From an uncultured Gammaproteobacteria bacterium (lineage in GTDB: Bacteria; Patescibacteriota; Microgenomatia; CAZETR01; Amesbacteraceae), in the NCBI GenBank assembly GCA_964543035.1, contig CAZIVL010000002.1, positions 58,340-122,339 of the forward strand: a stretch of 64,000 nt of DNA, in the 5' to 3' direction. The stretch's first letter is position 1, and each line of letters opens with the position of its first letter. Of the stretch, positions 21,288 through 57,378 are shown one piece after another. The translations under genes were made by a program, and so were the position numbers. A model generated the notes under the pieces. It made no database searches. It worked only from the letters and a program-made list of their open reading frames with translations, and had not been told where the DNA came from.

Positions 21288-22583
21288 TTATTTTCCTTGG
21301 TATAGGGCAAAGTCTTCAGTGTGAATTGAGCGAGATTTCATCCCTAGATCTGTCAACTGCTTTTTGAGTGAATCCATCATGGGGAGTGGGCCGCAAATAA
21401 AAACGTCCCGAGACAAAAGATCTGGAACCAGAGAGGCAATCTTTTTTGCATCTAGGCGACCTGATTCTTTGGATGAATACAGATGAAAATGAAATTGGGA
21501 ATTGGTCTTTGCTTGGGTTTCAAATTCGTTGATATACACAGCTTCGTTTGGGGTTGCCACTGCATAAATAAGATCAATCGTGTAAGGACTACCCTGATCC
21601 ATGTGTCTGCACATGCTCAAAAATGGAGTGATACCGATGCCGCCTGCTATCCAGATCTGATGAATGTTGGCTGTATTGAGATATGAAAATACCCCGTAAG
21701 GACCCTCAATAAGCACATGATCCCCAGGCTTTACTAATTTGAGTGTCTCGGTGTAATCGCCTAAAGATTTGGCGGCTATGCTGATGTCTGCCGTGTTGGG
21801 GTTACTAGTAAGAGAAAATGGATGAACCTCGGAACTGACACCTTTTGAGGATACTTCTAAAAATACGAATTGACCCGGTCGGTAGGTGAGACTTTTTGTT
21901 ATTGGGGAAAGACAGATTTCGGTGACTTCGCCTATTACAGTGGAGGAAGTGATTGTAAAGGGTAATCTGCGAACCATCTTTTTGAAGAACACTGTTCTAT
22001 ATATGAATGAAATTAAGGCAAGAGCAGAGAGAATAAGAAGATATCCTTTTAGGATGTAATTTTGGTTTAGATTTCCCGGCACAATTAACATATGGACAAT
22101 AGCTGCAGCAAAAGAAATACCTAATAACTGATGTGAAAGTTTCCATAGCTGATATTTTATTTTTGTAAAAAAAGTAATGGAAAGAAGAATGATCATGATA
22201 AACAACGCGATTCCTCCAATAAGATTTGCTGGAAGTGAGCGGGAGGGGATAAAAAATTGTGCGACGAATACGATAGAGGCAGGAAGATACTCTAGCGAAA
22301 GAAGTACGGGGTGGAAAAGAAGCAAGATAAGAGATATGGCACCTATGTAATGGTGATAAAAGTATATTCGGTTTAGGCCAACAAATATCTTTTCTAAAAA
22401 GTGATATCTGGCCGAGAGAATGAAATTGAGGGCAAATAAAGCCGTGCCTACGATAGCAGTAAGTTGTCCCAGCGAAACAATGGGGCTAGAGGACGATCTT
22501 GAAAAAAAATACCAGAGAAAAACTGGGCAAATTGTTATAATCGAGACGAATATTAATCCTTGTGACTCACGAAATGACCTCAT
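21288..22583 (-). CDS. ferric reductase-like flavocytochrome (FRD transmembrane domain + FAD-binding + NAD(P)-binding FNR-like domains)
   Basis: 431 aa; N-terminal 6-TM region with conserved His (HHYIGAISL...FHPVLL ... HQLLGISFAAAIVHMLIV), then RPGQFVFLE (FAD-binding RxYS-like) and GGIGITPFLSM (NAD-binding GGxGxxP). Confidence 0.75.
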   Translation of the reverse strand: MRSFRESQGLIFVSIITICPVFLWYFFSRSSSSPIVSLGQLTAIVGTALFALNFILSARYHFLEKIFVGLNRIYFYHHYIGAISLILLLFHPVLLSLEYLPASIVFVAQFFIPSRSLPANLIGGIALFIMIILLSITFFTKIKYQLWKLSHQLLGISFAAAIVHMLIVPGNLNQNYILKGYLLILSALALISFIYRTVFFKKMVRRLPFTITSSTVIGEVTEICLSPITKSLTYRPGQFVFLEVSSKGVSSEVHPFSLTSNPNTADISIAAKSLGDYTETLKLVKPGDHVLIEGPYGVFSYLNTANIHQIWIAGGIGITPFLSMCRHMDQGSPYTIDLIYAVATPNEAVYINEFETQAKTNSQFHFHLYSSKESGRLDAKKIASLVPDLLSRDVFICGPLPMMDSLKKQLTDLGMKSRSIHTEDFALYQGK

Positions 22584-23142: not shown

Positions 23143-24447
23143 ATGAAACTAAACAAGATTCAAATTGCAGTGGGGGTATCGTTAGTTTTGTTTTTTGTAA
23201 CTGTCACAGGTCTAGTCGGAACAGGACTGTGGGTCATGAAATTTCAGGAGAAGAAATCTCTTCCAGAGAAGACAGAAGACGTGGTGGTAAACAGTGTCCT
23301 TTCGGTAGAGGATGTGGCGGTACATAAGACAGTTGGTGACTGTTGGATTATTATTTCCGGAAAAGTATATGCTGTGTCTGGTTATCTGGGAACACATCCT
23401 GGAGGGGCGCTAGTAATTGCTCCGTACTGTGGAAAAGATGCAACTGAGGCATTTGCAACTAAGGGACGAATGCCTGCAGAATCACATAGTGGGACGGCGA
23501 CTGGTTTGCTGGATGAATATTTTGTAGGAAATATTGGGGAGATAATCACACAGATGGTGCCAACTACTGGGCCTACTCTTGTACCTGGACAGATAACACC
23601 GACCTCTGTATCCAAGCAATCTGTGGGAAATACAAATACTCAAGTTTCTTTGACGAATTCTGAGGTGTCGTCTCACAATACACTTTCTAACTGTTGGCTC
23701 ATCATATCTGGCAATGTATACAATGTAACTAGTTATTTGTATCAACATCCAGGAGGTGCAAGTGCGATATCTCCATACTGTGGTAAAGATGGAACTACGG
23801 CTTTTGCCACCAAAAATAAAGGTTCGTCTCACTCGTCTGTCGCAAATAATTTATTGAACAATTATTTGATAGGCACCATAGGACAGTTGGTGGTACTTGC
23901 ACCGAGTCCTACGACAGCGGTAGTAATTTTTGTACCTACGAATACCCCGGTACCACAAAATTTGACCCTAACCTCATCTGAAGTCGCAACTCACAATACG
24001 TTGCAAAACTGCTGGATGATTATCTCCAATAATGTGTACAACATTACGAGCTACGTATATCAACATCCTGGTGGGTCATCGATCTTGGCACAGTATTGTG
24101 GACGCGAAGCAACTACCGCATTTCAAACACAGGGCGGGAGGGGGAGTCACTCTAACAATGCTTCAAATTTACTGAATAATTTTCTAATAGGAACTCTGAA
24201 TTCTTCAGTAGTCGTCAACCCAACTAACACACCAGGCCCGGGAGGTACAAATCCAACTGCGACTCCAGCATCTTTTGGAGGAAGCTTGCCGGCTGCGATT
24301 ACAAACATGTACCCCGGGGCAACCAAAAAAAGTGGGGGATACGAAGATAATGGAAGTTGGGAAGGGAAGATAAATACCTCCTCTGGACAATGCAGGGAGA
24401 TGAAAGTTAATAGTTCGGGAAGTATAACTGAGAACCAAAGCTGCTAA
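23143..24447 (+). CDS. membrane-anchored protein with three tandem cytochrome b5-like heme-binding domains
   Basis: 434 aa; N-terminal TM; three repeats of about 100 aa each with HPGG and downstream SHS (VHKTVGDCWIIISGKVYAVSGYLGTHPGGALVIAPYCGKDATEAF...SHS; SHNTLSNCWLIISGNVYNVTSYLYQHPGGASAISPYCGKDGTTAF...SHS; THNTLQNCWMIISNNVYNITSYVYQHPGGSSILAQYCGREATTAF...SHS). Confidence 0.75.
   Translation: MKLNKIQIAVGVSLVLFFVTVTGLVGTGLWVMKFQEKKSLPEKTEDVVVNSVLSVEDVAVHKTVGDCWIIISGKVYAVSGYLGTHPGGALVIAPYCGKDATEAFATKGRMPAESHSGTATGLLDEYFVGNIGEIITQMVPTTGPTLVPGQITPTSVSKQSVGNTNTQVSLTNSEVSSHNTLSNCWLIISGNVYNVTSYLYQHPGGASAISPYCGKDGTTAFATKNKGSSHSSVANNLLNNYLIGTIGQLVVLAPSPTTAVVIFVPTNTPVPQNLTLTSSEVATHNTLQNCWMIISNNVYNITSYVYQHPGGSSILAQYCGREATTAFQTQGGRGSHSNNASNLLNNFLIGTLNSSVVVNPTNTPGPGGTNPTATPASFGGSLPAAITNMYPGATKKSGGYEDNGSWEGKINTSSGQCREMKVNSSGSITENQSC
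23300..24150 (+). repeat. three tandem intragenic repeats of about 300 bp (cytochrome b5 domain triplication)
   Basis: Protein-level repeat seen directly in the translation; DNA copies have diverged. Confidence 0.6.
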
Positions 24448-26981: not shown

Positions 26982-27398
26982 ATGTCTGATGTGAGTGCAA
27001 AGAATAATGCGGTGGTGCATTTTGAAATGCCGTATGAGGATGCCAGTAGGGTAGCTGAGTTTTATAAAAAATCTTTTGGTTGGGATATGCAGGTGATGGG
27101 AGAGCAATGGGGAGGATATGTGATGGCAATGACAACTGACTCCACGCAAGATGGACCGAAAAATCCGGGAGCTATCAATGGAGGATTTTTCCCCAAGAGT
27201 CCTACTTATCCTGCTGTTACGACAGTAGTGGTGCAAGTGGTGAATCTGGAAGAGGCAATGAAGAAAGTGACCGAGGCAGGAGGAAAACTACTCCTCCCTA
27301 AACCTATGGAGATCCCACAAGTGGGGCTGTATATGGCGATAGAAGATAGTGAAGGCAATCGAGTGGGTGTGCTACAACCTGCTCCAACGAATGGGTAA
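26982..27398 (+). CDS. VOC family (glyoxalase-like) protein
   Basis: AVVHFEMPYEDASRVAEFYKKSFGWDM and EDSEGNRVGVLQP fit the glyoxalase/bleomycin-resistance fold; the start at the MSDV Met is chosen over the upstream ATG at 26961. Confidence 0.6.
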   Translation: MSDVSAKNNAVVHFEMPYEDASRVAEFYKKSFGWDMQVMGEQWGGYVMAMTTDSTQDGPKNPGAINGGFFPKSPTYPAVTTVVVQVVNLEEAMKKVTEAGGKLLLPKPMEIPQVGLYMAIEDSEGNRVGVLQPAPTNG

Positions 27399-27741
27399 AG
27401 CACCTGACATCGAAGAAATAAAAAGAATTGCTGAGAAGAACTGGCCTATTGCATTGCCCTTGGTGGGTGGGCTGGCTGCAATTTCCGCTGTAGTGTATCT
27501 AACCTGGTCACTCAAGAGGCGGGCTGATGCTCATAAACAACAAGAAATTGATAAGGCTATGCAAACAGTTACAGGAATAGGAAATCCGGGAGCTTTGCTT
27601 CTGGAAGTGGCAGAAGTGCTGCCTGAGGTAGATTCAACGGCCGCTGGGATAGCTGCGAGAATGGCGAAGAAAATGAAAGGACCAAATGGTGAAGCTATGC
27701 AAGTTGTAGCTCAGAATGCAAAAACTAGGGTGATAAAGTAG
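27391..27741 (+). CDS. hypothetical membrane-anchored protein
   Basis: ORF with one TM (IALPLVGGLAAISAVVYLTW); it overlaps the VOC gene end by a few bases, so the real start is uncertain. Confidence 0.3.
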   Translation: MGKAPDIEEIKRIAEKNWPIALPLVGGLAAISAVVYLTWSLKRRADAHKQQEIDKAMQTVTGIGNPGALLLEVAEVLPEVDSTAAGIAARMAKKMKGPNGEAMQVVAQNAKTRVIK

Positions 27742-28402
27742 GAGTGGGAGTTACTTCCGGTGTGGAGACTGCGAGAGAGTTGTGGGGACTGACTTCGAGA
27801 TCAGAAAAGTAGGCGCCGGTGAGGCCGATCGCGACAAATAATGCACAGGCTATAGGAACTGCGATGGCTACTCGGGGAGAAAACTTAGGTCTGGGGAGCT
27901 TTCGCAAATTGTTTACCAATGATCTTAATTCTTCGTAAACAATAATAGTCCCGGGAACCACGACTAAGAAAATAAAACCCATGGGAGTCTTGGCAATGCT
28001 CGTTATGCGACCTACGTAGGGAACAGTGAGGAGGACCTTGCCCACTATCTTGTCCGATGCTAGCTGATTGGTGTCGAGAGAATCGTTGGCATCACCTTTG
28101 GTAACAAAACTTGGGGATTTGAAAATACCATCGGGCCAAGTCTTGGCGAGAACTCGGTGAGTAGTAGTCGTCTTGGGGCCGGAAGAAAAAGTCAAAATAT
28201 CGTTTGTAAAATACTCAGCTCTTTTTCCTACCATAATCACACTGCCTGTGGGAATGGTGGGCTCCATGGAGCCGGAAGTGACGACATAAAAACGAAAAGC
28301 ATTGACTCCTAGAAACTGATTGACAACAAAGAAGCCAGCAATAGTGAGACTCGTGTATAAAATAAAATCGGAAGCAAATTTTAGAAACTTGTTAATGGTC
28401 AT
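27725..28402 (-). CDS. sipW: signal peptidase I, SipW/archaeal-eukaryotic (S26B) type
   Basis: 225 aa; N-terminal TM, catalytic VVTSGSMEPTIPTGSVIMV (SGSMEPT Ser motif), C-terminal TM anchor; sits in an operon with TasA-like genes. Confidence 0.8.
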   Translation of the reverse strand: MTINKFLKFASDFILYTSLTIAGFFVVNQFLGVNAFRFYVVTSGSMEPTIPTGSVIMVGKRAEYFTNDILTFSSGPKTTTTHRVLAKTWPDGIFKSPSFVTKGDANDSLDTNQLASDKIVGKVLLTVPYVGRITSIAKTPMGFIFLVVVPGTIIVYEELRSLVNNLRKLPRPKFSPRVAIAVPIACALFVAIGLTGAYFSDLEVSPHNSLAVSTPEVTPTPTLSP

Positions 28403-29081
28403 ATTTCTTGGGTTTTTTGGTAGGTGTGGGAGTAGCTGTAGGCTTGGTTACACACTTTTTTTGACTGGGGCTCCAGACCCTGCCAGATCCGGTGACGGGA
28501 GTAGGAGCATCGGGACTAACTGCAATGAACTCCTCGGTAAAAGTAAGGATATCGCCCTGGGCCCAGTTGGTAACGGACTGGGGCATATGGAAGCTCTGAG
28601 TGGCCGTCACGTGCTTGTTTTTTTTTACCTCTCCCAATGGAATCCAACAAGAGACGGCATCTGGAAAGGGGAGGAGATCACCTTCTGCGATGATCGTCTT
28701 CTCACCAAATGAGAGGTCGTAATATAAATAATTTTGAATATCGGATTTGGGAACACCATTTTCTTCTTTGGATTCTGGCTCTGTCGTTGCTCCTTGGGAG
28801 GCGACGAGATTGGTTAGGTGAACAAAGACTTTGGCATCACCGTCTTTTACATATATATCTTTGTCTACATACCGATTGTCCCCGGGTTTTACATCATCTA
28901 GGCTTACGACAGTGGGGGGATTGTCTACTCCGTTGACCTTGAGGTCGATACGGCGCTCTTCGTGATGATCTCGGTCACGATGATCGCGATCATCGCGGTC
29001 ACCTAAAATCTTGGGATGATTGTTGAATGAAGAAAATATGGCAATACATCCGGCTACGAATGACTTGAAAAAATTATGCAT
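28392..29081 (-). CDS. TasA/camelysin-like paralog B (degenerate N-terminal signal, charged DRDDRDHRDRDHHEERR insert)
   Basis: Core IDLKVNGVDNP...DAVSCWIPLG...VTNWAQGD...TGSGRVW is shared with the 30006..31205 product; C-terminal PT-rich tail. Confidence 0.55.
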   Translation of the reverse strand: MHNFFKSFVAGCIAIFSSFNNHPKILGDRDDRDHRDRDHHEERRIDLKVNGVDNPPTVVSLDDVKPGDNRYVDKDIYVKDGDAKVFVHLTNLVASQGATTEPESKEENGVPKSDIQNYLYYDLSFGEKTIIAEGDLLPFPDAVSCWIPLGEVKKNKHVTATQSFHMPQSVTNWAQGDILTFTEEFIAVSPDAPTPVTGSGRVWSPSQKKCVTKPTATPTPTKKPKKYDH

Positions 29082-29155
29082 CTATTTGGCAAGTCAGAAT
29101 CCCTAACCGGGACTCTGAGCTGCCCTCCCGCTGGAAACGGGAGAGAGCAAAGAGA

Positions 29156-29992
29156 TTACTGAACTACTGGGTTACACAAGAAATCCGGGTTGTTTCTGTG
29201 CTGCTCTACTCTAAAGCGGACATCGGCAGTCAGAGAATCGGTCTGAGACTCGTTGCCCATAGATGCGCCGTCACAAGTGATTGTGAAGTTGATGCCATCG
29301 ATGGTCATTGTGCCTGCACACCAGGCCAGGCCCAGATTTTGGGTTGAACCACCTGGGAATGGAGTGGGCAGAAGAGAAGCTGAGTCTACAAGAGTATAGG
29401 TCTTGCCATTGAGAACATCGCTGGCTGGACCTTGCTCATTGGTGAACAACAAAGGCTCACCTTGCTCCCAGATATTGTCTCCATCGTCAGCCCAAGCTGT
29501 GAAATGGATATTTTGAGCCAATTCTCCTCCTTGTGGATCGTCGGTCAAATCTAGAGCTTCGACTTCAGGATCAATACGATCATTTTCAGCATTATTTAGA
29601 TTGAAAATATCGATACAGGCCCAGACGGGATTGTCTTCTACGTGCATACTGATCGTGTTTTCACCATAATCACCAGGTTTAACATCGATTAGGTCCCAGA
29701 ACTTTTCACTAGTGAGATCGCCTGCTGGCCAGGAGCCAGTACACGCCAATCCTACTAATTCTGGACGAGGTAAAACTTCGACTGATCCATCAGGCTGCCA
29801 TTGGCCGCCTTCGCAGATCATACCGTCGTAATGAGCAGTTGAGTCGATGGTGAGATCTACTTTTCCTGCTGTCAGATTGTTTGCTGGAGAAGTCTCAGTG
29901 TCTGAAAAGAAAGCTGAAGAGGCTCCCCAGACAGTCCCAGTCACTGCTCCTACTACTAACAAACTTATTAGTATGTTTTTCATTGTTGTCAT
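29156..29992 (-). CDS. TasA/camelysin (peptidase M73-like) family protein with SipW-cognate signal peptide
   Basis: 278 aa; signal MKNILISLLVVGAVTGTVWGASSAFFSDTETSPANNLTAGKVDLTI matches the SipW-cognate class (A-F-F-S-D-T-E-T, then NN..AG..DL as in TasA/CalY). Confidence 0.7.
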   Translation of the reverse strand: MTTMKNILISLLVVGAVTGTVWGASSAFFSDTETSPANNLTAGKVDLTIDSTAHYDGMICEGGQWQPDGSVEVLPRPELVGLACTGSWPAGDLTSEKFWDLIDVKPGDYGENTISMHVEDNPVWACIDIFNLNNAENDRIDPEVEALDLTDDPQGGELAQNIHFTAWADDGDNIWEQGEPLLFTNEQGPASDVLNGKTYTLVDSASLLPTPFPGGSTQNLGLAWCAGTMTIDGINFTITCDGASMGNESQTDSLTADVRFRVEQHRNNPDFLCNPVVQ

Positions 29993-30005
29993 TCACCCCC
30001 CTTCA

Positions 30006-31205
30006 CTACTGTATAGCTGTCGTACAGGAGGCACGAACCGCGTCGAGGTCGTAGCCATCTGCATCGGACGTAAATAACGCAATGTTTGAAACGTCGGTTA
30101 AGCGGACGTATTGGGCCGATGGCACGGGACTCATGTCCACTGTGCCGTCGCGGTTTAGACTCGCGGCAACGGTGGTCCAGGAAGAACCGTCAGGACCGAC
30201 TTCTACTTTTACAAGCTCATCGGGATAAGGAGGATTGGTAGCTCCTGTCACTTCGTAGACGGAAAGATCGGGGCCGGGCTGGTCGATGAAGGGACTACTA
30301 AATTTGAGAACTATAGAACCATTGGTGAAACCAAGACTAAAGAAAGAATTGGCCGCGACGGGATTGTCTGTCGGAGTGCCTGCTGATTGGGGAGCACCCA
30401 AGGCAAAATTGCCATTGCTTCTGCTGGCTAGAACTGCGGCACCACCCTTTTGAGTGCCCTGGGCGATTTGTTCAAATGAAGATGCAAAGGCGGGGATACA
30501 GGCGATGGGAGTTGGGGTCGGGGTAACCGTGGGAGAGGGAGTGATAGTCGGAGTAGGAGTAGTATTTGGGACACAGTGCTTGAGCTCGGGGTCCCAAACC
30601 CTGCCGGAGCCAGTGTCGGGGATGGTGGGATCATTTAGCTGTTGGGCTAGGAACTCTTCGGCGAAATCCAACGTGTCGCCCTGGGCCCAGTTGGTAACAT
30701 TTTTGTCAAAGTGAAAACTCTGAACTAGATTGACATGGGTGTTGCCCGGAATAGTGCCAATGGGGATCCAACAGGAGACGGCGTCGGGTAAAGATACATC
30801 GTCGGCAAAATCGATAATGACACTGGCTGATGGTGAGGATATAGAAAGGTCGTAGGTAATGTAGTTTTGGATATCAAACTTGGGAGTACCATTTTCTTCC
30901 AAATCCTCCGGTTCAGTCTGGGTGCCTTGGGTAACTTCCAGGCTTTTGATGTGCAACCAGATCTTGGTGGGATTGAAGTCCACAAATAAATCTTTGTCAA
31001 AAAATTTGTCATCACCGGGCTTGAGATCGGCAAATGACACGACTGATTCGGGATTGTCTACGCCGTTTACTTTGAGGTCGATTTTGCCGGCTGTGAAGTT
31101 GTTTGCTGTGGCTGTCTCTGTGTCTGAAAAGAAAGCGCGGGAGAGACCTATAACTGAGGGGATGGTTACACCGAGAACAATGAGGCTGGCTAGAACTTTG
31201 TTCAT
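30006..31205 (-). CDS. TasA/camelysin-like paralog C with SipW-cognate signal and extra C-terminal domain
   Basis: Start chosen at MNKVLASLIVLGV...SRAFFSDTETATANNFTAGKIDLKVNG; core shared with paralog B; PT linker TPTPTITPSPTVTPTPTP followed by a C-terminal domain of about 170 aa. Confidence 0.7.
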   Translation of the reverse strand: MNKVLASLIVLGVTIPSVIGLSRAFFSDTETATANNFTAGKIDLKVNGVDNPESVVSFADLKPGDDKFFDKDLFVDFNPTKIWLHIKSLEVTQGTQTEPEDLEENGTPKFDIQNYITYDLSISSPSASVIIDFADDVSLPDAVSCWIPIGTIPGNTHVNLVQSFHFDKNVTNWAQGDTLDFAEEFLAQQLNDPTIPDTGSGRVWDPELKHCVPNTTPTPTITPSPTVTPTPTPIACIPAFASSFEQIAQGTQKGGAAVLASRSNGNFALGAPQSAGTPTDNPVAANSFFSLGFTNGSIVLKFSSPFIDQPGPDLSVYEVTGATNPPYPDELVKVEVGPDGSSWTTVAASLNRDGTVDMSPVPSAQYVRLTDVSNIALFTSDADGYDLDAVRASCTTAIQ

Positions 31206-31337
31206 AGTATCACCATAACCTAGAGTGTCTTGGGGGATCAATTGGGACAATCAGTATCAAAGATGCACTCAAATATCTTAAAATTTTGGTTTTTTTTGAG
31301 AAATAAAGATTTGCGTGCAACAGAAATTTTATATATC

Positions 31338-33410: not shown

Positions 33411-33970
33411 CGATTCTTTTTGGTTTTTTTGTGAAGACTAGGCTTGATGTGGTAGGTGATGAAATAGAGAGCGATAATAATCAGGATGACGGCAAAAACT
33501 GCGAGCTGAAAGACGGGGAGAGAAAGAGGAGAAAGAGAAGTCTCGGGTGGAGTGGTAGTAAAAGAGGCTGTGGATACAGTCTTGGGGATGAGGGCTGTGT
33601 GGGCATTGGTTACTAATTCGGCTTGTACGGTGTGGGGGCCATATTTGAGATTTGTGAGAGTATAAGTGTCGCTGGTGACTTCTATGGCATTTTCGGAAGT
33701 GGGGCGGTCTTGGTCTACCCAGAGATGAATATGGCCTTGGCCATAAGTCGCTTTGGGGCGAGTATGGTAGTCAGTGAGTGTGATGTAGGAAGGGATAGAA
33801 AAAGTAAGCGTATTTCCCTCTTTTGGAGCAGCGACTGAGAAGGAGGTTTCGGCGCGAGCCTTGACTACTCCTGCTACAAAAAGAAAGAACGCGGCCATGA
33901 GGAGAATCTTTTTCAGGTGTTTGCGAGCAGTCACATGTATCATTGTGAAGTGTTGTAAAAAGGGTGTCAA
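33407..33970 (-). CDS. hypothetical exported protein with C-terminal TM anchor (His-rich GQGHIHLWVD motif)
   Basis: 187 aa; signal peptide, beta-rich region with HxH, C-terminal anchor LAVFAVILIIIALYFI plus a basic tail. Confidence 0.35.
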   Translation of the reverse strand: MTPFLQHFTMIHVTARKHLKKILLMAAFFLFVAGVVKARAETSFSVAAPKEGNTLTFSIPSYITLTDYHTRPKATYGQGHIHLWVDQDRPTSENAIEVTSDTYTLTNLKYGPHTVQAELVTNAHTALIPKTVSTASFTTTPPETSLSPLSLPVFQLAVFAVILIIIALYFITYHIKPSLHKKTKKNR

Positions 33971-34008
33971 GTTGGTATATTTTGGAAACTGTGAATAAAA
34001 ACTTACTA

Positions 34009-34428
34009 ATGGGAGTGGCGGTAGTCTTGGTAGTTGGAGGATTGGGAGTATGGTACTTGGGACGAAATCCTAAAACTGAAATTCTAAATTCTAAAGACGT
34101 TGTCGAAAGTACACCAGCTCCGACGCCTGGACCTACGGTAGAGTCACTGGGAGAAGTAAAGGAGTTTGTAGTAAATGGAAATGACTTTAAATTTGATGTA
34201 ACTGAGATAAGAGTAAAAGTTGGGGATAAGGTAAAAGTGACGTTTAAAAACACTGGAGGATTTCACGACTGGGTCTTGGATGAATTTAACGTAAAGACCG
34301 CCCAACTTAAAGATGGAGCGGAGGAAACAGTGGAGTTTGTGGCAGAAAAAGCAGGGACATTTGAATACTATTGTTCTGTAGGCAAGCACAGACAAATGGG
34401 AATGGTGGGAAAGCTGATTGTGGAGTAA
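34009..34428 (+). CDS. cupredoxin (type 1 blue copper protein), membrane-anchored
   Basis: N-terminal TM; type-1 Cu ligands H(DWV)...C..H....M in FHDWV...YYCSVGKHRQMGMVGKLIVE; PT linker before the domain. Confidence 0.8.
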   Translation: MGVAVVLVVGGLGVWYLGRNPKTEILNSKDVVESTPAPTPGPTVESLGEVKEFVVNGNDFKFDVTEIRVKVGDKVKVTFKNTGGFHDWVLDEFNVKTAQLKDGAEETVEFVAEKAGTFEYYCSVGKHRQMGMVGKLIVE

Positions 34429-34811: not shown

Positions 34812-35291
34812 TTGAGAAGCATACGTCAAGTTTGGTATATTTGGGTGGTGAATAAGTATGTAGTGATAGGGGTTGTGGTAATTGGAATAGTAGTAGGGGG
34901 AGTCGCGATCTGGTACGCCGGCTCAAACTCTAAACCTCAAGAGACAAATACAAAAACGGAAGAAGTAGTAACCATTGAGCCGACACAACCGCCAGTTGAT
35001 GAAACGACCACGGGTGAGGTGAAAGAAATAACTGTAGAGGGAAGTAGCTTTAAATTTGAGCCGGCAGTGATCAGAGTCAAAAAGGGAGACACAGTGAACC
35101 TGACATTTAAAAGTGTGGGGACCATACACGACTTTGTGATAGATGAGCTTGGTGTGAAGACAAATCAAATTGGGGATGAAGAGGAAGAGACGGTGGAATT
35201 TGTGGCAAATAAAGCTGGAACTTATGAGTATTATTGCTCTGTAGGCAAGCACAGGCAAATGGGGATGGTGGGGAAATTAATAGTTGAATAG
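34812..35291 (+). CDS. cupredoxin paralog (type 1 blue copper protein), membrane-anchored
   Basis: IHDFV...YYCSVGKHRQMGMVGKLIVE is the same Cu site as the 34009 gene; the true start may be a GTG near 34845. Confidence 0.8.
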   Translation: MRSIRQVWYIWVVNKYVVIGVVVIGIVVGGVAIWYAGSNSKPQETNTKTEEVVTIEPTQPPVDETTTGEVKEITVEGSSFKFEPAVIRVKKGDTVNLTFKSVGTIHDFVIDELGVKTNQIGDEEEETVEFVANKAGTYEYYCSVGKHRQMGMVGKLIVE

Positions 35292-52559: not shown

Positions 52560-54812
52560 TTATCTGCGGCGGGGAGATGGTTTTTTGTTTGGAGTAGGAG
52601 TAGGTGCTTGGGGATTTTGGGTGGAGGCGCCAGTCAGAATCTGATCTTTGATCTTCTGGATGGTCTCGTCGGAACAAGTCTTCTCGGGCTCGGTGCCTGG
52701 TAAGAAGTACTCAAACTTGCCACCACAACTGTTGCAGGCTTTTTCGCCAGTAATAGGGCAGATGGCAACTCGGTTTAGTCCGGAAGGAGCTACAAAATCC
52801 TCAGATGGATACCGGGCAATGGCCTCTAACATGAGTTTTTTCCAGATGGGAGAGGCGCCAGTAACACCGGAGGCGACGTAGCTCATGGGAGTGTTGTCAT
52901 TGTTGCCCACCCAGACGAGGGTGACCAAATCGCTCGTGTAGCCGATGGTCCAATTGTCCCGCAGACTATTGGTAGTCCCTGTCTTGACTGCCACGCGGTG
53001 GGGAGCGAGATTGAGCTGAGAATTGGTGCCAAATGTGGGGGCGCGGGCGGCGTTGTCCGAAAGAATATCGGTGATCATGTAGGCAATGCCGGGACCTAGG
53101 ACCTCTTCTGATGGACAGGATGTGATCTCGGTGACGAGAGCCTCTGCGGCATTGGCCGCGGGGATGAATGGTGAGTAGTGAGTAGTGGGAGATTTTTTGT
53201 CACAGCGAAATTCTTCGAGTAATCTGCCGCGGGAGTCGCGAACGGAAAGAATGGATTGGGTAGGAACTCTTTGGCCCATGTTTGCAAATGTGCCATAAAC
53301 TTGGGCCATGTCCAGCATAGTGACTTCGCCACCACCCAATGTCAATGATAGTCCAAAACGGGAGGTATCGGTCCAAGTGGTAATGCCCATCTGGGTGCCA
53401 AGGGCAATCATGTTTTCAATACCATTTGCGGATAACAGCTTTACTGCCGGAATGTTGTACGAAGAAGCCAGAGCCGTCCTCAGAGATACTCGACCGTGGT
53501 AACGATTGTCATAATTTTGGGGAGAATAGTTTGGTTGACCTGGAGTCTTATAAGTAATAGGGGAATCTTCGATGATGGAAGAAGGGGTAAAGCCTTTTTG
53601 AAAAGCTAATGCATAGTTGACTGGCTTGATACTAGAGCCGGGCTGACGAATGGCTTTGGTGACATTTACCTGACCATCGGAGGCAATGTCAAAATAATTT
53701 TTTGACCCGACCATAGCTAAGATCTCACCCGTTTTGGGATTGGTCACCAGAGCCGCGCCATTGGTAATGTGCAAATAATTTACCTTGGCTACTTCGGTTG
53801 CGACGATCTCCTCGGCTTTTTTTTGCAGATCCAAGTCAAGCGAAGTGATGACATCGAGGCCGCCTTGTTCGACCAACTCGGGTCCATATTTTCGAGTCAG
53901 TATTTCTTTTATGTACATGACAAAGTGAGGAGCTGAGATGGTAGTGGCTGGGGGCTTGAAAGTCAGATCTAGACCGGAGGCTTCTTCGGCTTGTTCCCAG
54001 GTGATATATCCGTCTTCGACCATTCTTCGCAAAACTTCTTTTTGGCGAGATTTGGCTAGCTCTGGGTGAGAACCGTAGGGAGAGTACACGGTAGGTGAGG
54101 CGGGGAGACCGGCTAAAAGAGAAACTTGGGCCAGACTCAACTGAGCTGCGGGAATGCCAAAATATGTCTGAGCTGCTTCTTCGATGCCATAACTAGAACC
54201 CCCAAAACCTACGCGATTGAGATACATCTCCAAAATCTCGTCTTTTGTGTAGATGTATTCGACGGCAATTGATAAAGCCAGTTCACGAAGTTTTCTGATC
54301 AGTGTGCGCTCGGGGGAAAGAAGAGAAATCTTTACTAACTGTTGGGTAATGGTGGATCCACCCTGAAGAGTAGAATCTTTTTTTAGATTTGATACAAAAG
54401 CCCGAAATAACCCAGTGGGTGAGAAACCACGATGGTTGTAAAAATCTTTGTCTTCGATAGCAATCACTGCCTGTTTTACGTGGTCTGGAAGATCTGCCAG
54501 TTTGATGGGAGTGCGATTTTCTCCGGAATAAATCTTGTAAAGCTCAGTACCATTTCTGTCTCTGATATGAGTCGTCTGAGGAATCGGAGTGACTGATAGT
54601 GATTGGGGAGAAGGGAGACCCTTGAGTATAAAAAAATAAACACTAAATCCTAAAATACAAATAAAGAATAAGGGGATAAAATATAAAAATCTAACTCTGG
54701 GAAGTTTGATTAATTGAAGTACTGTGACGGCTGGATAAATGGATTTGAGAAAATTGTGAAGGGTCATATAAAGCGGATTATCTCTTTGGAATGCGATTTT
54801 CACAAGACGCAT
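52560..54812 (-). CDS. class A penicillin-binding protein (PBP1A family; glycosyltransferase + transpeptidase)
   Basis: GT51 motifs (AIEDKDFYNHRGF, GGSTITQQLVK), transpeptidase SxxK (GSSIKP), SxN and KTGT; ends with a C-terminal Cys-rich tail. Confidence 0.9.
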   Translation of the reverse strand: MRLVKIAFQRDNPLYMTLHNFLKSIYPAVTVLQLIKLPRVRFLYFIPLFFICILGFSVYFFILKGLPSPQSLSVTPIPQTTHIRDRNGTELYKIYSGENRTPIKLADLPDHVKQAVIAIEDKDFYNHRGFSPTGLFRAFVSNLKKDSTLQGGSTITQQLVKISLLSPERTLIRKLRELALSIAVEYIYTKDEILEMYLNRVGFGGSSYGIEEAAQTYFGIPAAQLSLAQVSLLAGLPASPTVYSPYGSHPELAKSRQKEVLRRMVEDGYITWEQAEEASGLDLTFKPPATTISAPHFVMYIKEILTRKYGPELVEQGGLDVITSLDLDLQKKAEEIVATEVAKVNYLHITNGAALVTNPKTGEILAMVGSKNYFDIASDGQVNVTKAIRQPGSSIKPVNYALAFQKGFTPSSIIEDSPITYKTPGQPNYSPQNYDNRYHGRVSLRTALASSYNIPAVKLLSANGIENMIALGTQMGITTWTDTSRFGLSLTLGGGEVTMLDMAQVYGTFANMGQRVPTQSILSVRDSRGRLLEEFRCDKKSPTTHYSPFIPAANAAEALVTEITSCPSEEVLGPGIAYMITDILSDNAARAPTFGTNSQLNLAPHRVAVKTGTTNSLRDNWTIGYTSDLVTLVWVGNNDNTPMSYVASGVTGASPIWKKLMLEAIARYPSEDFVAPSGLNRVAICPITGEKACNSCGGKFEYFLPGTEPEKTCSDETIQKIKDQILTGASTQNPQAPTPTPNKKPSPRRR

Positions 54813-55042
54813 TTGATATGCTAGAGAAGATGGCGGAGAAAGATCTAAGTGAGAGACAGAAAACTGTATTGGAAATAATTGTGAATCATACGAGTGGGGT
54901 GCCTACAAAAGATTTGTTGGAGACAGCCAGTAAAGACGGAGGAATGAGCGAAAGAGCTGCGAGGAGAATTGCTTGGCGGCTTGTGCGATTGGGTGAGGTA
55001 CGTTTTGAAAATGGAGTTTGGGAAGTTCAGAGCGAGGATTAG
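54791..55042 (+). CDS. small hypothetical protein (possible winged-helix)
   Basis: 83 aa; weak; lies between the two convergent/tandem PBP genes. Confidence 0.25.
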   Translation: MRFSQDAFDMLEKMAEKDLSERQKTVLEIIVNHTSGVPTKDLLETASKDGGMSERAARRIAWRLVRLGEVRFENGVWEVQSED

Positions 55043-57378
55043 AAATTTTGAGCTCGACCAGTCCGATCCAGAACAATAGTATTGGCATCGCCGTAACCTC
55101 CGGCACAATCGAGACACAGATCAATACCTAGGGGATCCGTGATGACCAAATGATCTTGGTATTCGATGTCTCCCGCAAAATCTGTCACTTGTCTGGGAGT
55201 GGCTGGTACATTGCGTGACTTGAGAATGGGAATGGATTTTCTGACCGACCCTTGGACTGCAGGAACTGTGCCAGCAAGAAAATATTCGTACCTGGGGGAG
55301 CAGGTAGCTGGATCTGCACCGTCTGGGGCCTTGTAACCTGAGAGGGAACAGACGAGAGTACCTACGACTTCGGCGGGCTGGGATGGCCAGTGCTGGGGCA
55401 TACCTGTGAGAGCTCTTCGCATCACTTTGTTCCAAATGGGGGAGGCGCCGGTGACACCGGAGGCCACATTTGACATGGGAGTGTTGTCATTATTTCCAAC
55501 CCAGACTGCAGTCAGGAGACTCGGGGTGTAGCCCACTGTCCAATTGTCTCTTTTGTTGTTTGTCGTCCCAGTCTTTACAGATACTTCTGGGTGGCCTGGG
55601 ATATTTAGAAATGAGGACACACCAAAAGTGGCGGCACGGGCGCCGGGATCGTAGAGAATGTGGGAAATAATGAAGGCCGTGCCGGGGGAGATGACACGAG
55701 TGTCGGAAACACCCTGTATAACGTATCTTGTATCTTGTATCTTGTATTCTGAATAAGGATTTGGCTGGTTGTCAGTATTTACTTCACGACTTTTTACTTG
55801 TTCGAGAATTTTTCCGTTGCGGTCCATGACGACTAAAATGGGATTGAGGTCTACTCTTTTGCCAGCGTTGGCCAGAACTCCATAGGCAGTTGAGAGATCG
55901 AGCATGGTGACCTCGCCCCCGCCCAAAGCAATACTAGGCCCATATTTGGTGGGATCGGTGTATGTCGAGAATCCGAAAGCTGAAGCCGAGGCCACAAAAT
56001 TGCCTAAGCCTTCCATGACGAGGGCTTTGACGGCTGGAATGTTGAAAGAATTGCCGAGAGCAAAACGAACTTGGGTGGGGCCGTGGAACTGGACATCGTA
56101 ATTTTGGGGACAATAAATCTCTTGACCTGCTTGAGCAAAACACGTAGCTTTGTCTGCAAGAAGGGTGCTGGCTGTAAATGTGCGATGCTCGATACCTAGA
56201 GCATAGGTAATGGGTTTGATACTGGAGCCTGGCTGACGCTTGGCCAAAGTTACATTTACATTGCCATCATCTTCAATATTGAAATAATCTTTGGATCCAA
56301 CCATAGCCAGAACTTCACCGGTTTTGGGATTGGTGACCAAGGCTGCACCGTTTCCGACTTTTTCGCGGGTGAGCTTGGCTACTTCGGAAGCGACAGTGTC
56401 TTGGGCAAAATTTTGGAGCTCAAGATCGAGGGTGGTGATGACGGTCAGACCATCTTGCTCGACTTTTTCGATGCCGTATTTTTCGATGAGCTTGTCTTTT
56501 ACCCAAAGAGAGAAATGAGGAGCTTTGAGAACTGGAGGGGATGAGAAGACTAATTCGGTGTTGATGGCTGAGTCATACTCTTCTTGAGAAATAAACTTGG
56601 CATCCAGCATCTGACTCAAAATATATTTTTGACGATCGAGACCCAGCTCGGGACGGGATCCAAAGGGAGAATAATACGAAGGGGCTTGGGGGAGGGCCGC
56701 CAGAAGAGCGGCTTCGGAGAGAGTAAGAGCTGTCGCTGGTTTGCCAAAATAAGCGTTGCTGGCTGCTTCCAATCCATATGCTGTGCCACCATATGGAATC
56801 TGGTTGAGATAGAGCTCCAGAATCTCATCTTTTTTGTAGAGGTTTTCGACAGCTAGACTCAAGACCAACTCACGAATCTTTCTTCTGATGGTTCTGTCAT
56901 CAACTAAGAGGGCTTTTTTTACTAACTGCTGAGTAATAGTGGAACCACCTTGGAGTTTTTGTCTAAAAAATGTACTAAAAAGGGCTCTACTTATGCCTTT
57001 TAAAGAGAAACCTGAGTGAGAATAAAAATCGCGATCTTCGGCGGCGAGGGTGGCTTGCCAGACGTACTTGGGGAGAGTGTCTAACTTGATGGGAGTCCTA
57101 CGACCTACGGAAAAAATCTCATAAATGATTTTGCCGTTTCTATCTAATAGTTTTGTGGAAGCGGGAGCGGGGTGGGTGGTGAGCTCGCGGGGATTTGGGA
57201 GATCCCAGAAGATATAGATGGACATAAGCACTAAAAAAATAAATCCTAAGGACCAAAAGAGGCGTTTTTTTCCTGACGGAAATTTCCACTTGGTCTGGAA
57301 GCGGGCGACTAGCTTGTCCTTATACTCCTTGGTTTTTGCTTGATCGTAGGTTCTTGCCTTTTTGGGCATATATTGCAA
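55039..57378 (-). CDS. class A penicillin-binding protein, second paralog
   Basis: AAEDRDFYSHSGF, GGSTITQQLVK, GSSIKP, KTGTTNN; same architecture as the 52560 gene. Confidence 0.9.
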   Translation of the reverse strand: MQYMPKKARTYDQAKTKEYKDKLVARFQTKWKFPSGKKRLFWSLGFIFLVLMSIYIFWDLPNPRELTTHPAPASTKLLDRNGKIIYEIFSVGRRTPIKLDTLPKYVWQATLAAEDRDFYSHSGFSLKGISRALFSTFFRQKLQGGSTITQQLVKKALLVDDRTIRRKIRELVLSLAVENLYKKDEILELYLNQIPYGGTAYGLEAASNAYFGKPATALTLSEAALLAALPQAPSYYSPFGSRPELGLDRQKYILSQMLDAKFISQEEYDSAINTELVFSSPPVLKAPHFSLWVKDKLIEKYGIEKVEQDGLTVITTLDLELQNFAQDTVASEVAKLTREKVGNGAALVTNPKTGEVLAMVGSKDYFNIEDDGNVNVTLAKRQPGSSIKPITYALGIEHRTFTASTLLADKATCFAQAGQEIYCPQNYDVQFHGPTQVRFALGNSFNIPAVKALVMEGLGNFVASASAFGFSTYTDPTKYGPSIALGGGEVTMLDLSTAYGVLANAGKRVDLNPILVVMDRNGKILEQVKSREVNTDNQPNPYSEYKIQDTRYVIQGVSDTRVISPGTAFIISHILYDPGARAATFGVSSFLNIPGHPEVSVKTGTTNNKRDNWTVGYTPSLLTAVWVGNNDNTPMSNVASGVTGASPIWNKVMRRALTGMPQHWPSQPAEVVGTLVCSLSGYKAPDGADPATCSPRYEYFLAGTVPAVQGSVRKSIPILKSRNVPATPRQVTDFAGDIEYQDHLVITDPLGIDLCLDCAGGYGDANTIVLDRTGRAQNF

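Follow-up and report, generated by a model that had tools for sequence, protein, structure and literature searches.

The window that we have analysed, a stretch of 64,000 nucleotides, carries on its minus strand four co-directional genes at positions 27725-31250, in the order C-A-B-peptidase. An earlier reading of the same DNA, made from the letters alone (the sequence-only reading), had claimed four such genes; the ORF check found all of them, and the motifs quoted there were present in the sequences. C and A are full TasA/CalY-like proteins with SipW-cognate signals, B is a C-like paralog, and the fourth gene encodes a signal peptidase of the ER/SipW type.

Gene C was listed as 30006-31250, but its actual start codon is the ATG at 31205. 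The resulting gene (30006..31205, minus strand) encodes 399 aa, in agreement with the NCBI/Logan protein call. The protein comprises a SipW-type signal (aa 1-24), a donor-strand motif (FFSDTETATANNFTAG), a TasA-like jelly-roll (aa ~41-213) and, joined to it by a PT linker, a CBM32/discoidin-like domain (aa ~236-396); alignments A1 and A2 placed the predicted cleavage site, an Ala directly before FFSDTETATANNFTAG, and the donor strand at 31086..31136 (minus strand). C scored 32.8 bits against Pfam PF12389 (cut-off 22.5) and 20.5 bits against TIGR04088, cognate_SipW (cut-off 19). In the AF2 model of the monomer (pLDDT 82), residues 19-38 and the donor-strand region were disordered. Foldseek matched the N-domain to TasA (5of2) with an E-value of 2.8e-4 and a probability of 1.0, the fold likeness being modest (TM 0.48 on the target), and TasA was the sole PDB sequence match of the C-type profile (profile E 0.052), at very low identity. 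The TasA donor strand spans residues 28-39 (PMC9674648). Within FFSDTETATANNFTAG, an invariant Asn precedes the hydrophobic anchor Phe by two residues, and N-x-hydrophobic was kept in 104/104 motif-bearing homologs.

Gene A (29156..29992, minus strand, 278 aa) encodes a divergent, Cys-rich, second TasA-like subunit, in which a SipW-cognate signal ending in Ala is followed by the donor-strand motif FFSDTETSPANNLTAG. It scored 19.6 bits against TIGR04088 (cut-off 19) and 15.6 bits against PF12389, under the cut-off of 22.5. The hhalign comparison of the A-type and C-type profiles gave a probability of 99.9% and an E-value of 1.6e-32 over 195 columns; judged by this alignment, A is a true, distant paralog of C over the whole domain. 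About 1000 A-type homologs were found, named TasA/CalY family in CPR.

Gene B (28392..29081, minus strand, 229 aa) encodes a C-like TasA core beginning at IDLKVNG (phmmer against the C core, E 2.7e-60), with a short hydrophobic stretch and a His/Asp/Arg-rich linker in place of signal and donor strand. B matched neither TIGR04088 nor our custom signal profile, and its export is assumed, since its N-terminus has no clear signal-peptide features. The strand-less class to which it belongs accounted for 14 of the 120 best C homologs, in which the core and the Lys of KPGD were kept; the B-type gene was syntenic in loci L004 and L013, and in B-type proteins of different genomes the core was intact and a pair of Cys residues was invariant. 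Sequence conservation thus identifies B as a member of a conserved strand-less class and no casual truncation.

These comparisons (phmmer, hhalign) bore out the earlier view that the three proteins A, B and C are paralogous, and together with the AF2 model of C they confirmed that B and C share a core and that C has an extra domain after its PT linker, the predicted fold of which is CBM32/discoidin-like, that is, lectin-like. Two paralogs had been credited with SipW-cognate signals, and A and C both reach the curated cut-off of TIGR04088. The parallel statement that all three carry the AFFSDTE signal holds for A and C and fails for B, as the mention of two paralogs had implied. In the proposed search with TIGR04088 and PF12389, A and C reached the former cut-off, and the latter was passed by C and missed by A.

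The peptidase gene (27725..28402, minus strand; signal peptidase I, S26B, 225 aa) overlaps the end of gene B by 11 nt. Its product is arranged as TM1, a catalytic beta domain (Ser45, His82, Asp104), TM2, a basic loop, TM3 and an extracytoplasmic tail, and S45, H82, D104 and D110 were invariant in 65 homologs. It passed TIGR02228 with 79.9 bits (cut-off 51.85), and failed both the bacterial LepB-type family TIGR02227 (27.1 bits, cut-off 47) and the Bacillus SipW equivalog NF046067 (92 bits, cut-off 190). The AF2 model (pLDDT 88.7) showed three helices, and its best Foldseek matches were human SEC11C (7p2q_A, 8e-7) and SEC11A (7p2p_A, 8.1e-6), LepB and SpsB reaching only 2e-3 to 5e-2. This agreed with the S26B SipW-like peptidase proposed before, an ER/SipW-type, SEC11-like enzyme. 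An ordinary LepB-type peptidase was rejected on the failed TIGR02227 search and on LepB structures matching more weakly than SEC11.

The most unusual feature of the operon, absent from the sequence-only reading, is a signal and a strand fused to the C-terminus of the peptidase (TM3 and tail, 27728..27877, minus strand). The third membrane helix (aa 176-198) follows RKLPRPKFSPR, with positive charges adjoining it on the cytoplasmic side, and closes as a cognate-type signal in ...GLTGA; together with the YFSDLEVSPHNSL that comes after this last Ala, it forms an internal cognate signal with a donor-strand-like peptide. The tail beyond TM3, YFSDLEVSPHNSLAVSTPEVTPTPTLSP, is such a peptide without a core, and extends 27 residues past the putative cleavage site; a convergent gene comes next. 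We have built a custom profile from 211 homologous signal-plus-strand segments and searched the 544 ORFs of the window with it. A scored 54.5, C 48.2 and the peptidase tail 28.4 bits (E 2.6e-8), the third-best score in the window, the best other ORF reaching 6.1 bits. TIGR04088 was the best specific family for the tail (13.7-16.9 bits, under the cut-off of 19). The alignment of the tail with the strands of C and A extends as far as AG, the exact point at which the two cores begin.

This module recurs widely. It was present in 136/142 of the best new cluster representatives (clustered at 50% identity) and in loci with the C and A cassette; D201 and N208 were invariant in 18 fused homologs, and the tail is conserved in its strand segment, Y-F-x-D-x-E-x-S-x-x-N-x-L-x-A. 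The tails of fused peptidases ranged from 19 to 532 aa and consisted mostly of lamin-tail domains (after the module in 70/96 long members), with RTX repeats in one. The lamin-tail domain is normally extracytoplasmic.

The order C-type, A-type, optional B-type, peptidase was also found in loci L004, L006-L010 and L013, and the order A, C, peptidase in the archaeal loci L014-L016. The B-type gene was missing from several related loci, so that the system can do without B. Homologs number from hundreds to about a thousand and bear the NCBI names TasA family, CalY family and SipW-dependent-type signal peptide-containing protein (Patescibacteria), close ones being called "TasA/CalY family protein [Patescibacteria]"; moreover, Patescibacteria were among the phyla listed with PF12389 in a 2022 paper (PMC9245690). 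The claim that such an operon is not characterised in CPR was therefore only partly right: this is a known system of a catalogued kind, with a variant architecture apparently not described so far. The interpretation as a TasA-type fibre operon gained support from the SipW-type peptidase and the TasA/camelysin-like proteins with cognate signals. As to the tapA-sipW-tasA architecture, the peptidase with its cognate substrates was recovered, and the gene order differs.

The B. subtilis tapA-sipW-tasA operon (5OF1, 5OF2, 8AUR) likewise encodes a dedicated ER-type signal peptidase with its substrates, and its TasA, like C and A, bears a SipW-cognate signal ahead of a jelly-roll core; an N-terminal segment of C and A takes the position of the TasA donor strand. 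The operon described here differs in its C-A-B-peptidase order without a separate tapA gene, in having two divergent full subunits and a strand-less one, in the CBM32-like domain on one subunit and in a peptidase below the Bacillus SipW equivalog cut-off (92 vs 190 bits). In B. subtilis, TasA receives its first strand from the accessory protein TapA, and a tapA construct secreting only 14 residues past the signal still supports biofilm formation (PMC10151520, PMC9674648), whereas here it is the C-terminus of the peptidase that bears a fused TapA-like signal and strand. By analogy, we infer that the tail may be a built-in fibre starter, a fused TapA-like initiator.

The C. perfringens sipW-bsaA-bsaB-bsaC operon also combines SipW with several TasA-like paralogs, one of which, BsaB, does not form long oligomers. 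The N-terminal strand of the BsaA monomer is disordered (PMC11580942), as is the same region in our C model, and BsaA V33-N35-F37 has its Asn two residues before the anchor, as in N35-F37 of C, N38-L40 of A and N208-L210 of the tail. Here the DLKPGD Lys, which is invariant, could possibly pair with an acidic residue in an isopeptide lock equivalent to BsaA K74/E56. In a published survey, proteins with the N-E-K triad came mainly from Clostridia, Coprobacillaceae, Enterococcaceae and Thermococcus, and not from CPR (PMC11580942). Unlike the bsa locus with its exchange-and-lock fibres, the operon here encodes neither a von Willebrand A domain protein nor a sortase.

The archaeal AbpA/AbpB bundling pili (Pyrobaculum) are donor-strand-complemented jelly-roll filaments, as proposed here, but their AbpA operon does not encode a peptidase of its own (PMC9245690). 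Loci L014-L016 contain the same cassette of A-type, C-type and peptidase genes at about 41% identity, with peptidases lacking the fused signal and strand tail. With the chaperone-usher pili (Fim/Pap) the analogy is functional only: strand-less FimH/PapG are confined to one fibre end, as B might be, special subunits for initiation and termination define the ends, and a lectin domain mediates adhesion. Those pili are unrelated in sequence and need an outer-membrane usher and a periplasmic chaperone, of which we found no counterpart in the operon.

We consider it likely, with a probability of roughly 70%, that the operon serves a TasA-type extracellular fibre of its CPR (Patescibacteria) host, assembled by donor-strand exchange with the tail as initiator and B as terminator. 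This host is probably Microgenomates-like. Sec would export C and A, and the operon's own peptidase would cut them after the Ala that precedes FFSD, exposing the N-terminal strand FFSDTE..N.[FL].AG. By analogy with TasA and BsaA, this strand would enter the jelly-roll of the next subunit, giving a polymer on which C would display its modelled CBM32/discoidin-like domain, probably glycan-binding, on the PT linker. B, having an acceptor core and no donor strand, could only end a chain, and would be a terminator and possibly a membrane-proximal anchor; a major subunit with accessory subunits, as suggested previously, would agree with this anatomy. TM3 would mimic a cognate signal, and the strand-only tail would be a minimal TapA-like initiator: freed by self-cleavage between A198 and Y199, or still tethered, YFSDLEVSPHNSLAV would occupy the first subunit's acceptor groove, thereby starting or anchoring the fibre. 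The Ig-like lamin-tail domain on the same strand in most relatives would be the counterpart of TapA's Ig domain. The growth polarity implied here is borrowed from what has been proposed for BsaA.

The operon could instead be an ordinary TasA/CalY-SipW matrix operon, in which TM3 and the tail are a membrane stabiliser or a decaying fusion remnant, B is a decaying duplicate, and neither has a role in assembly. The shortness of the tail, which is followed by a convergent gene, its score below the TIGR04088 cut-off, and the large number of CPR and archaeal cassettes in which the peptidase is plain and B is absent are compatible with this explanation. However, a tail whose module is kept in nearly all cluster representatives, with invariant D and N and real domains downstream, does not look like one in decay, its profile match is specific, and B-type proteins are conserved across genomes with their cores and Cys pair. 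We therefore regard this explanation as unlikely. Slightly less probable still is that the tail is a fused secreted cargo, either a self-cleaved lamin-tail protein or a small peptide, with a role of its own in adhesion or signalling rather than in priming or anchoring a fibre. The broad range of tail lengths, the prevalence of lamin-tail domains and the single RTX example would fit a cargo, as would the JGI label for such SipW-signal proteins, predicted ribosomally synthesised peptides. Yet what is conserved is not cargo: it is the strand segment matching the donor strands of the neighbours and stopping where their cores start, and the fusion occurs in loci with the C and A cassette.

The idea that the three proteins A, B and C might be secreted metalloproteases of the camelysin type, or cell-surface lectins that do not polymerise, draws on the Pfam name of PF12389 (Peptidase_M73, camelysin) and on the CBM32-like domain of C. 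We hold it to be very improbable, as the HExxH motif is absent from the A, B and C sequences, CalY is considered to have probably been mislabelled as a peptidase (PMC11580942), and the strand motif and TasA-like fold suggest polymerisation.

Finally, the spacer between A and B contains two adjacent stable RNA hairpins (29088..29143, minus strand) with a folding energy of -39.8 kcal/mol (z = -4.7), and none of 200 shuffled sequences folded as well. The hairpins are not followed by a T-run and matched no Rfam family. They may act as an attenuator within the operon or as an mRNA-stability element between the genes for the abundant (C, A) and minor (B, peptidase) products. In locus L004, hairpin 1 was identical and hairpin 2 was preserved through compensatory changes.

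Four co-directional open reading frames (ORFs) were found on the minus strand at 27725-31250 of the window, which confirmed the operon that the sequence-only reading had placed there; the motifs quoted in that reading were likewise found in the sequences. The genes follow one another in the order C, A, B and peptidase, the first three coding for TasA/CalY-like paralogs. Gene C is listed at 30006-31250, with an ATG at 31205 that is preceded by a GGTGA Shine-Dalgarno-like motif, and the 399-aa protein read from this ATG is identical to the one on record in NCBI and Logan (P0001). Gene A (29156-29992) codes for 278 aa and gene B (28392-29081) for 229 aa, and the peptidase gene (27725-28402, 225 aa) starts inside B, sharing 11 nt with its end. 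Protein A had no exact match in the contig index and was present in the cluster look-up. Since scanning for promoters and terminators returned sites no more numerous than in shuffled sequence, the operon boundaries were drawn solely from gene spacing.

We have then examined the family and fold of the peptidase, for which a SipW-type rather than a LepB-type assignment had been proposed. Enzymes of the ER/SipW type are expected to carry a Ser-His-Asp set instead of a Ser-Lys dyad. Among 65 aligned homologs, S45 (GSM), H82 (THR), D104 (GDAN) and D110 were invariant, and no Lys was found among the invariant residues. The protein passed the archaeal/ER-type model TIGR02228 (79.9 bits, cut-off 51.85) and failed the bacterial LepB-type model TIGR02227 (27.1 bits, cut-off 47). 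The best Foldseek matches of its AF2 model (pLDDT 88.7) were human SEC11C (7p2q_A, 8.3e-7) and SEC11A (7p2p_A, 8.1e-6), ahead of both SpsB (2e-3) and LepB (4e-3 to 5e-2). A LepB-type peptidase was rejected on the TIGR02227 score, the catalytic residues and the SEC11-like fold, and the proposed assignment held. As the score against the Bacillus SipW equivalog NF046067 (92 bits) lies below its cut-off of 190, the enzyme is SipW-like and not a SipW ortholog by NCBI's criterion.

The expectation of a SipW-cognate signal in two of the paralogs was borne out by A (19.6 bits) and C (20.5 bits), both above the TIGR04088 cut-off of 19 bits. The gathering threshold of PF12389 (IPR022121; 22.5 bits) was passed by C alone (32.8 bits), with A scoring 15.6 bits and B giving no match; PF12389 is annotated in many A-type homologs. 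A profile built from ten A-type proteins aligned with that of the C/B type by hhalign over 195 columns (99.9%, E 1.6e-32), taking in DxKPGD, TEPE and the last strand Q(T/G)DxLT...Q.RNNP. Based on this profile alignment, A is best regarded as a true but distant paralog, despite its unlike look by eye.

The AF2 model of C (pLDDT 82), the one of the three paralogs whose fold was predicted, consists of two beta domains joined by a PT linker; in this monomer residues 19-38, including the AFFSDTE...NNF segment, are disordered. Foldseek matched the N-domain to B. subtilis TasA (5of2) over 201 columns with an E-value of 2.8e-4 and a probability of 1.0, the likeness being modest (TM 0.48 on the target). 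Among PDB sequences, the C-type profile matched TasA alone (E 0.052) and the A-type profile none. The C-terminal domain of C (aa 236-399) was found joined to A-type N-domains in other genomes, and it therefore behaves as a mobile module. A metalloprotease (camelysin) role for these proteins is unlikely: the HExxH motif is absent, and the peptidase label of CalY/camelysin is regarded as a likely misidentification (PMC11580942). Cleavage of the co-encoded TasA-like precursors by the operon peptidase is suggested by the fit to the (-3,-1) rule, the residues at the predicted cuts being SRA↓F in C, SSA↓F in A and TGA↓Y in a third segment, which belongs to the peptidase itself.

This third segment lies in a C-terminal tail. 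After the catalytic domain follow TM2, a basic loop (RKLPRPKFSPR) and a third hydrophobic helix ending in GLTGA, from which the peptidase runs on into YFSDLEVSPHNSLAVSTPEVTPTPTLSP up to the C-terminus. This segment, which includes the tail peptide YFSDLEVSPHNSLAVSTPE, aligned residue for residue with the signal and N-terminal donor-strand motif ("strand") of both C, SRA↓FFSDTETATANNFTAG, and A, SSA↓FFSDTETSPANNLTAG, and the alignment extended up to AG, where the cores of C and A start. In this peptidase, only 27 residues remain after the predicted cut. We have built a custom profile from 211 signal and strand segments of TasA-like proteins of the candidate phyla radiation (CPR) and searched it against 544 window ORFs. 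The tail scored 28.4 bits (E 2.6e-8), with A and C alone scoring higher and the next ORF reaching 6.1 bits.

All 18 of the nearest peptidase homologs carried the fused module, Asp201 and Asn208 being invariant among them. Of the best 142 new representatives (50% identity) from an exhaustive profile search, 136 had it as well, with tails of 19 to 532 residues. On this recurrence, a frameshift or an artefact of assembly was rejected. Among the members of at least 330 aa, 70 of 96 carried a Pfam lamin-tail domain after the module; plain peptidases without a tail occurred in archaeal and more distant CPR cassettes. In NCBIfam, TIGR04088 came out as the best specific match for these tails (13.7-16.9 bits, below the cut-off of 19), and no NCBIfam model covers the fused part. 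In the literature, no report was found on a lamin-tail domain with a signal peptidase or on a peptidase fusion of this kind.

Paralog B showed the reverse arrangement. It matched the core of C in phmmer (E 2.7e-60), and gave no match to either TIGR04088 or the custom signal and strand profile. Its layout, a short hydrophobic N-terminus, a short or His/Asp-rich linker and a core from (I/L)DLxxNG, was common to 14 of the 120 best C homologs, and the D-E-S-N strand motif was absent from all 14. B-type genes adjoin the peptidase gene in two related loci (L004 and L013). We have rejected a truncated pseudogene, the class being conserved and syntenic. B is, then, a conserved core without the strand, and the peptidase tail is the strand without a core. 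The N-terminal linker of B contains GDRDDRDHRDRDHHEERR (28950-29010, minus strand). This His-, Asp- and Arg-rich segment has counterparts similar in kind in the closest B-type proteins (P0059, P0060 and that of L004) and might bind metal. RTX calcium-binding repeats (PF00353) were seen at the C-terminus of the strand-less B homologs P0058, P0073 and P0082, and also in one fused peptidase tail.

A locus scan with one genome per species, seeded with 21 sequences, gave 26 related loci. The order C-type, A-type, optional B-type and peptidase recurs in CPR loci (L004, L006-L010 and L013), and the order A, C and peptidase in archaeal loci (L014-L016). The latter, from Thermoplasmata and other archaeal MAGs, carry cassettes with about 41% identity to C and are closer to C than several CPR loci, which suggests, as far as sequence similarity goes, a transfer of the A-type, C-type and peptidase cassette between CPR and archaea. 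The nearest named relatives of the operon proteins are Patescibacteria, including Curtissbacteria (55% identity), Amesbacteria and the Microgenomates group, so that a CPR origin, probably Microgenomates-like, is well founded; further close relatives are several records named only "Patescibacteria group bacterium." CPR-type cassettes were also seen in records named "uncultured Gammaproteobacteria bacterium" (L003, L004, L008, L009, L011, L012, L022 and L027), of which L003 and L004 share 84-89% identity with gene C; the label on those records is probably a placeholder or an error.

Homologs are numerous, and some are labelled by NCBI as TasA family, CalY family or SipW-dependent-type signal peptide-containing proteins of Patescibacteria; PF12389 itself is readily found in phyla including Patescibacteria (Wang et al. 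2022, PMC9245690). The basic finding is for these reasons a member of a known, automatically annotated kind, and the operon is ordinary for its family. The TasA-type reading of the operon was accordingly largely right, and its novelty in CPR did not stand. Our literature search on SipW in the Candidate Phyla Radiation returned nothing relevant, and no study of this operon type in CPR was found. It is the signal and strand fused to the peptidase, together with the strand-less paralog B, that make up an apparently undescribed variant architecture, and a widespread one.

Within a TasA fibre, each subunit inserts its mature N-terminus (residues 28-38 plus F39) into the following one, and the first strand is thought to come from TapA (PMC9674648). 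Biofilms were still normal with a tapA allele secreting just 14 residues past the signal (PMC10151520). By analogy, C and A would be the shaft subunits, processed by the operon's peptidase, and the peptidase tail would be a fused, minimal TapA-like initiator or anchor, whose strand, self-cleaved or still tethered, would prime a TasA-type fibre or anchor it through donor-strand complementation. B, being able to accept a strand and not to donate one, would end the chain, and the CBM32-like domain of C would make the fibre adhesive. All of these roles, shaft, initiator, terminator and adhesion, are proposed by likeness to known systems, and the TapA-like label stands for a functional analogy, not for family membership. 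The tail shares with TapA a SipW-type signal and a strand-like segment (profile score 28.4 bits); for TapA itself, the 44-57 peptide accelerates the polymerisation of TasA. The tail differs from a true TapA homolog, which would be secreted on its own and have a complete Ig-type domain: the module is here fused to the peptidase, and its relatives bear a lamin-tail, not a TapA, domain.

The BsaA fibre of C. perfringens is built by the same exchange, followed by an isopeptide bond between N35 and K74 as a lock, and appears to be membrane-anchored (PMC11580942). This lock calls for a donor-strand Asn between two hydrophobic anchors, an acceptor Lys and a catalytic Glu. In our proteins, the strand Asn lies two residues ahead of the hydrophobic anchor, with the same spacing as N35 of BsaA, and this [FL]-2 position was occupied by Asn in 104 of 104 homologs; N208 was likewise seen in each of the 18 tails. 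An invariant Lys is also present in DLKPGD, and TasA has it as well. A covalent Asn-Lys lock as in BsaA would be no more than a possibility.

The tail and B could instead be neutral remnants, but both are conserved; the tail could also be cargo unrelated to the fibre, but its conserved part is the strand and not cargo. We give a probability of roughly 35% to the fibre reading in full, namely that a large, apparently undescribed CPR peptidase family carries its own substrate module, minimal here, whose strand primes or anchors a TasA-type fibre (lamin-tail-bearing in relatives), maybe with an Asn-Lys lock, and that B caps the other end. This would amount to a self-contained initiator-shaft-terminator pilus system in bacteria that are ultra-small and probably epibiotic.

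CPR bacteria are believed to spend their lives attached to other cells, and to our knowledge little is known of their surface appendages beyond type IV pili. If the fibre reading is true, a TasA-type fibre with a lectin-like domain, a strand-less capping paralog and a peptidase with its own initiator strand would give a compact, testable model of how such cells build an adhesive or matrix fibre, and the lectin-bearing subunits would be candidates for host-cell attachment. The nucleation and anchoring of fibres is an open question in the TasA field, on which the fusion bears, a TapA-like function appearing physically coupled to the processing enzyme; the idea is testable since at least 136 clusters (50% identity) carry the fusion. 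Should the plain reading alone hold, the operon is one more automatically annotated TasA/SipW operon.

Two adjacent, stable hairpins occupy the A-B spacer (29088-29143, minus strand; -39.8 kcal/mol, z -4.7). The first is unchanged in the closest relative (L004), where compensatory changes preserve the second; there is no T-run after them, and no Rfam family matched. The amounts of C and A relative to B and the peptidase could be set by these hairpins, which predict a large excess of C and A. A convergent ORF of 130 aa (27349-27741, plus strand), called as a 116-aa gene in the Logan contig, shares 17 nt with the 3' end of the peptidase gene.

Elsewhere in the window, a membrane-anchored protein that contains three cytochrome b5 domains (23143-24447, plus strand; Pfam 214 bits) is encoded about 560 bp from an upstream, opposite-strand gene for a NOX/ferric-reductase-like flavoprotein with Ferric_reduct, FAD and NAD domains (21288-22583, minus strand). 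For a CPR genome, such a redox pair appears out of the ordinary. Near the fibre operon lie two paralogous small cupredoxins of plastocyanin/azurin-like type (33964-34428 and 34812-35291, plus strand), with N-terminal membrane anchors and identical C-termini. Two tandem class A penicillin-binding proteins with transglycosylase and transpeptidase domains are encoded at 52560-54812 and 55039-57378 (minus strand). No tRNA gene and no Rfam family were detected in the 64 kb. The GC skew was positive in all 2-kb bins of the window (0.06 to 0.40), with its minimum at 28-30 kb, the site of the minus-strand operon.
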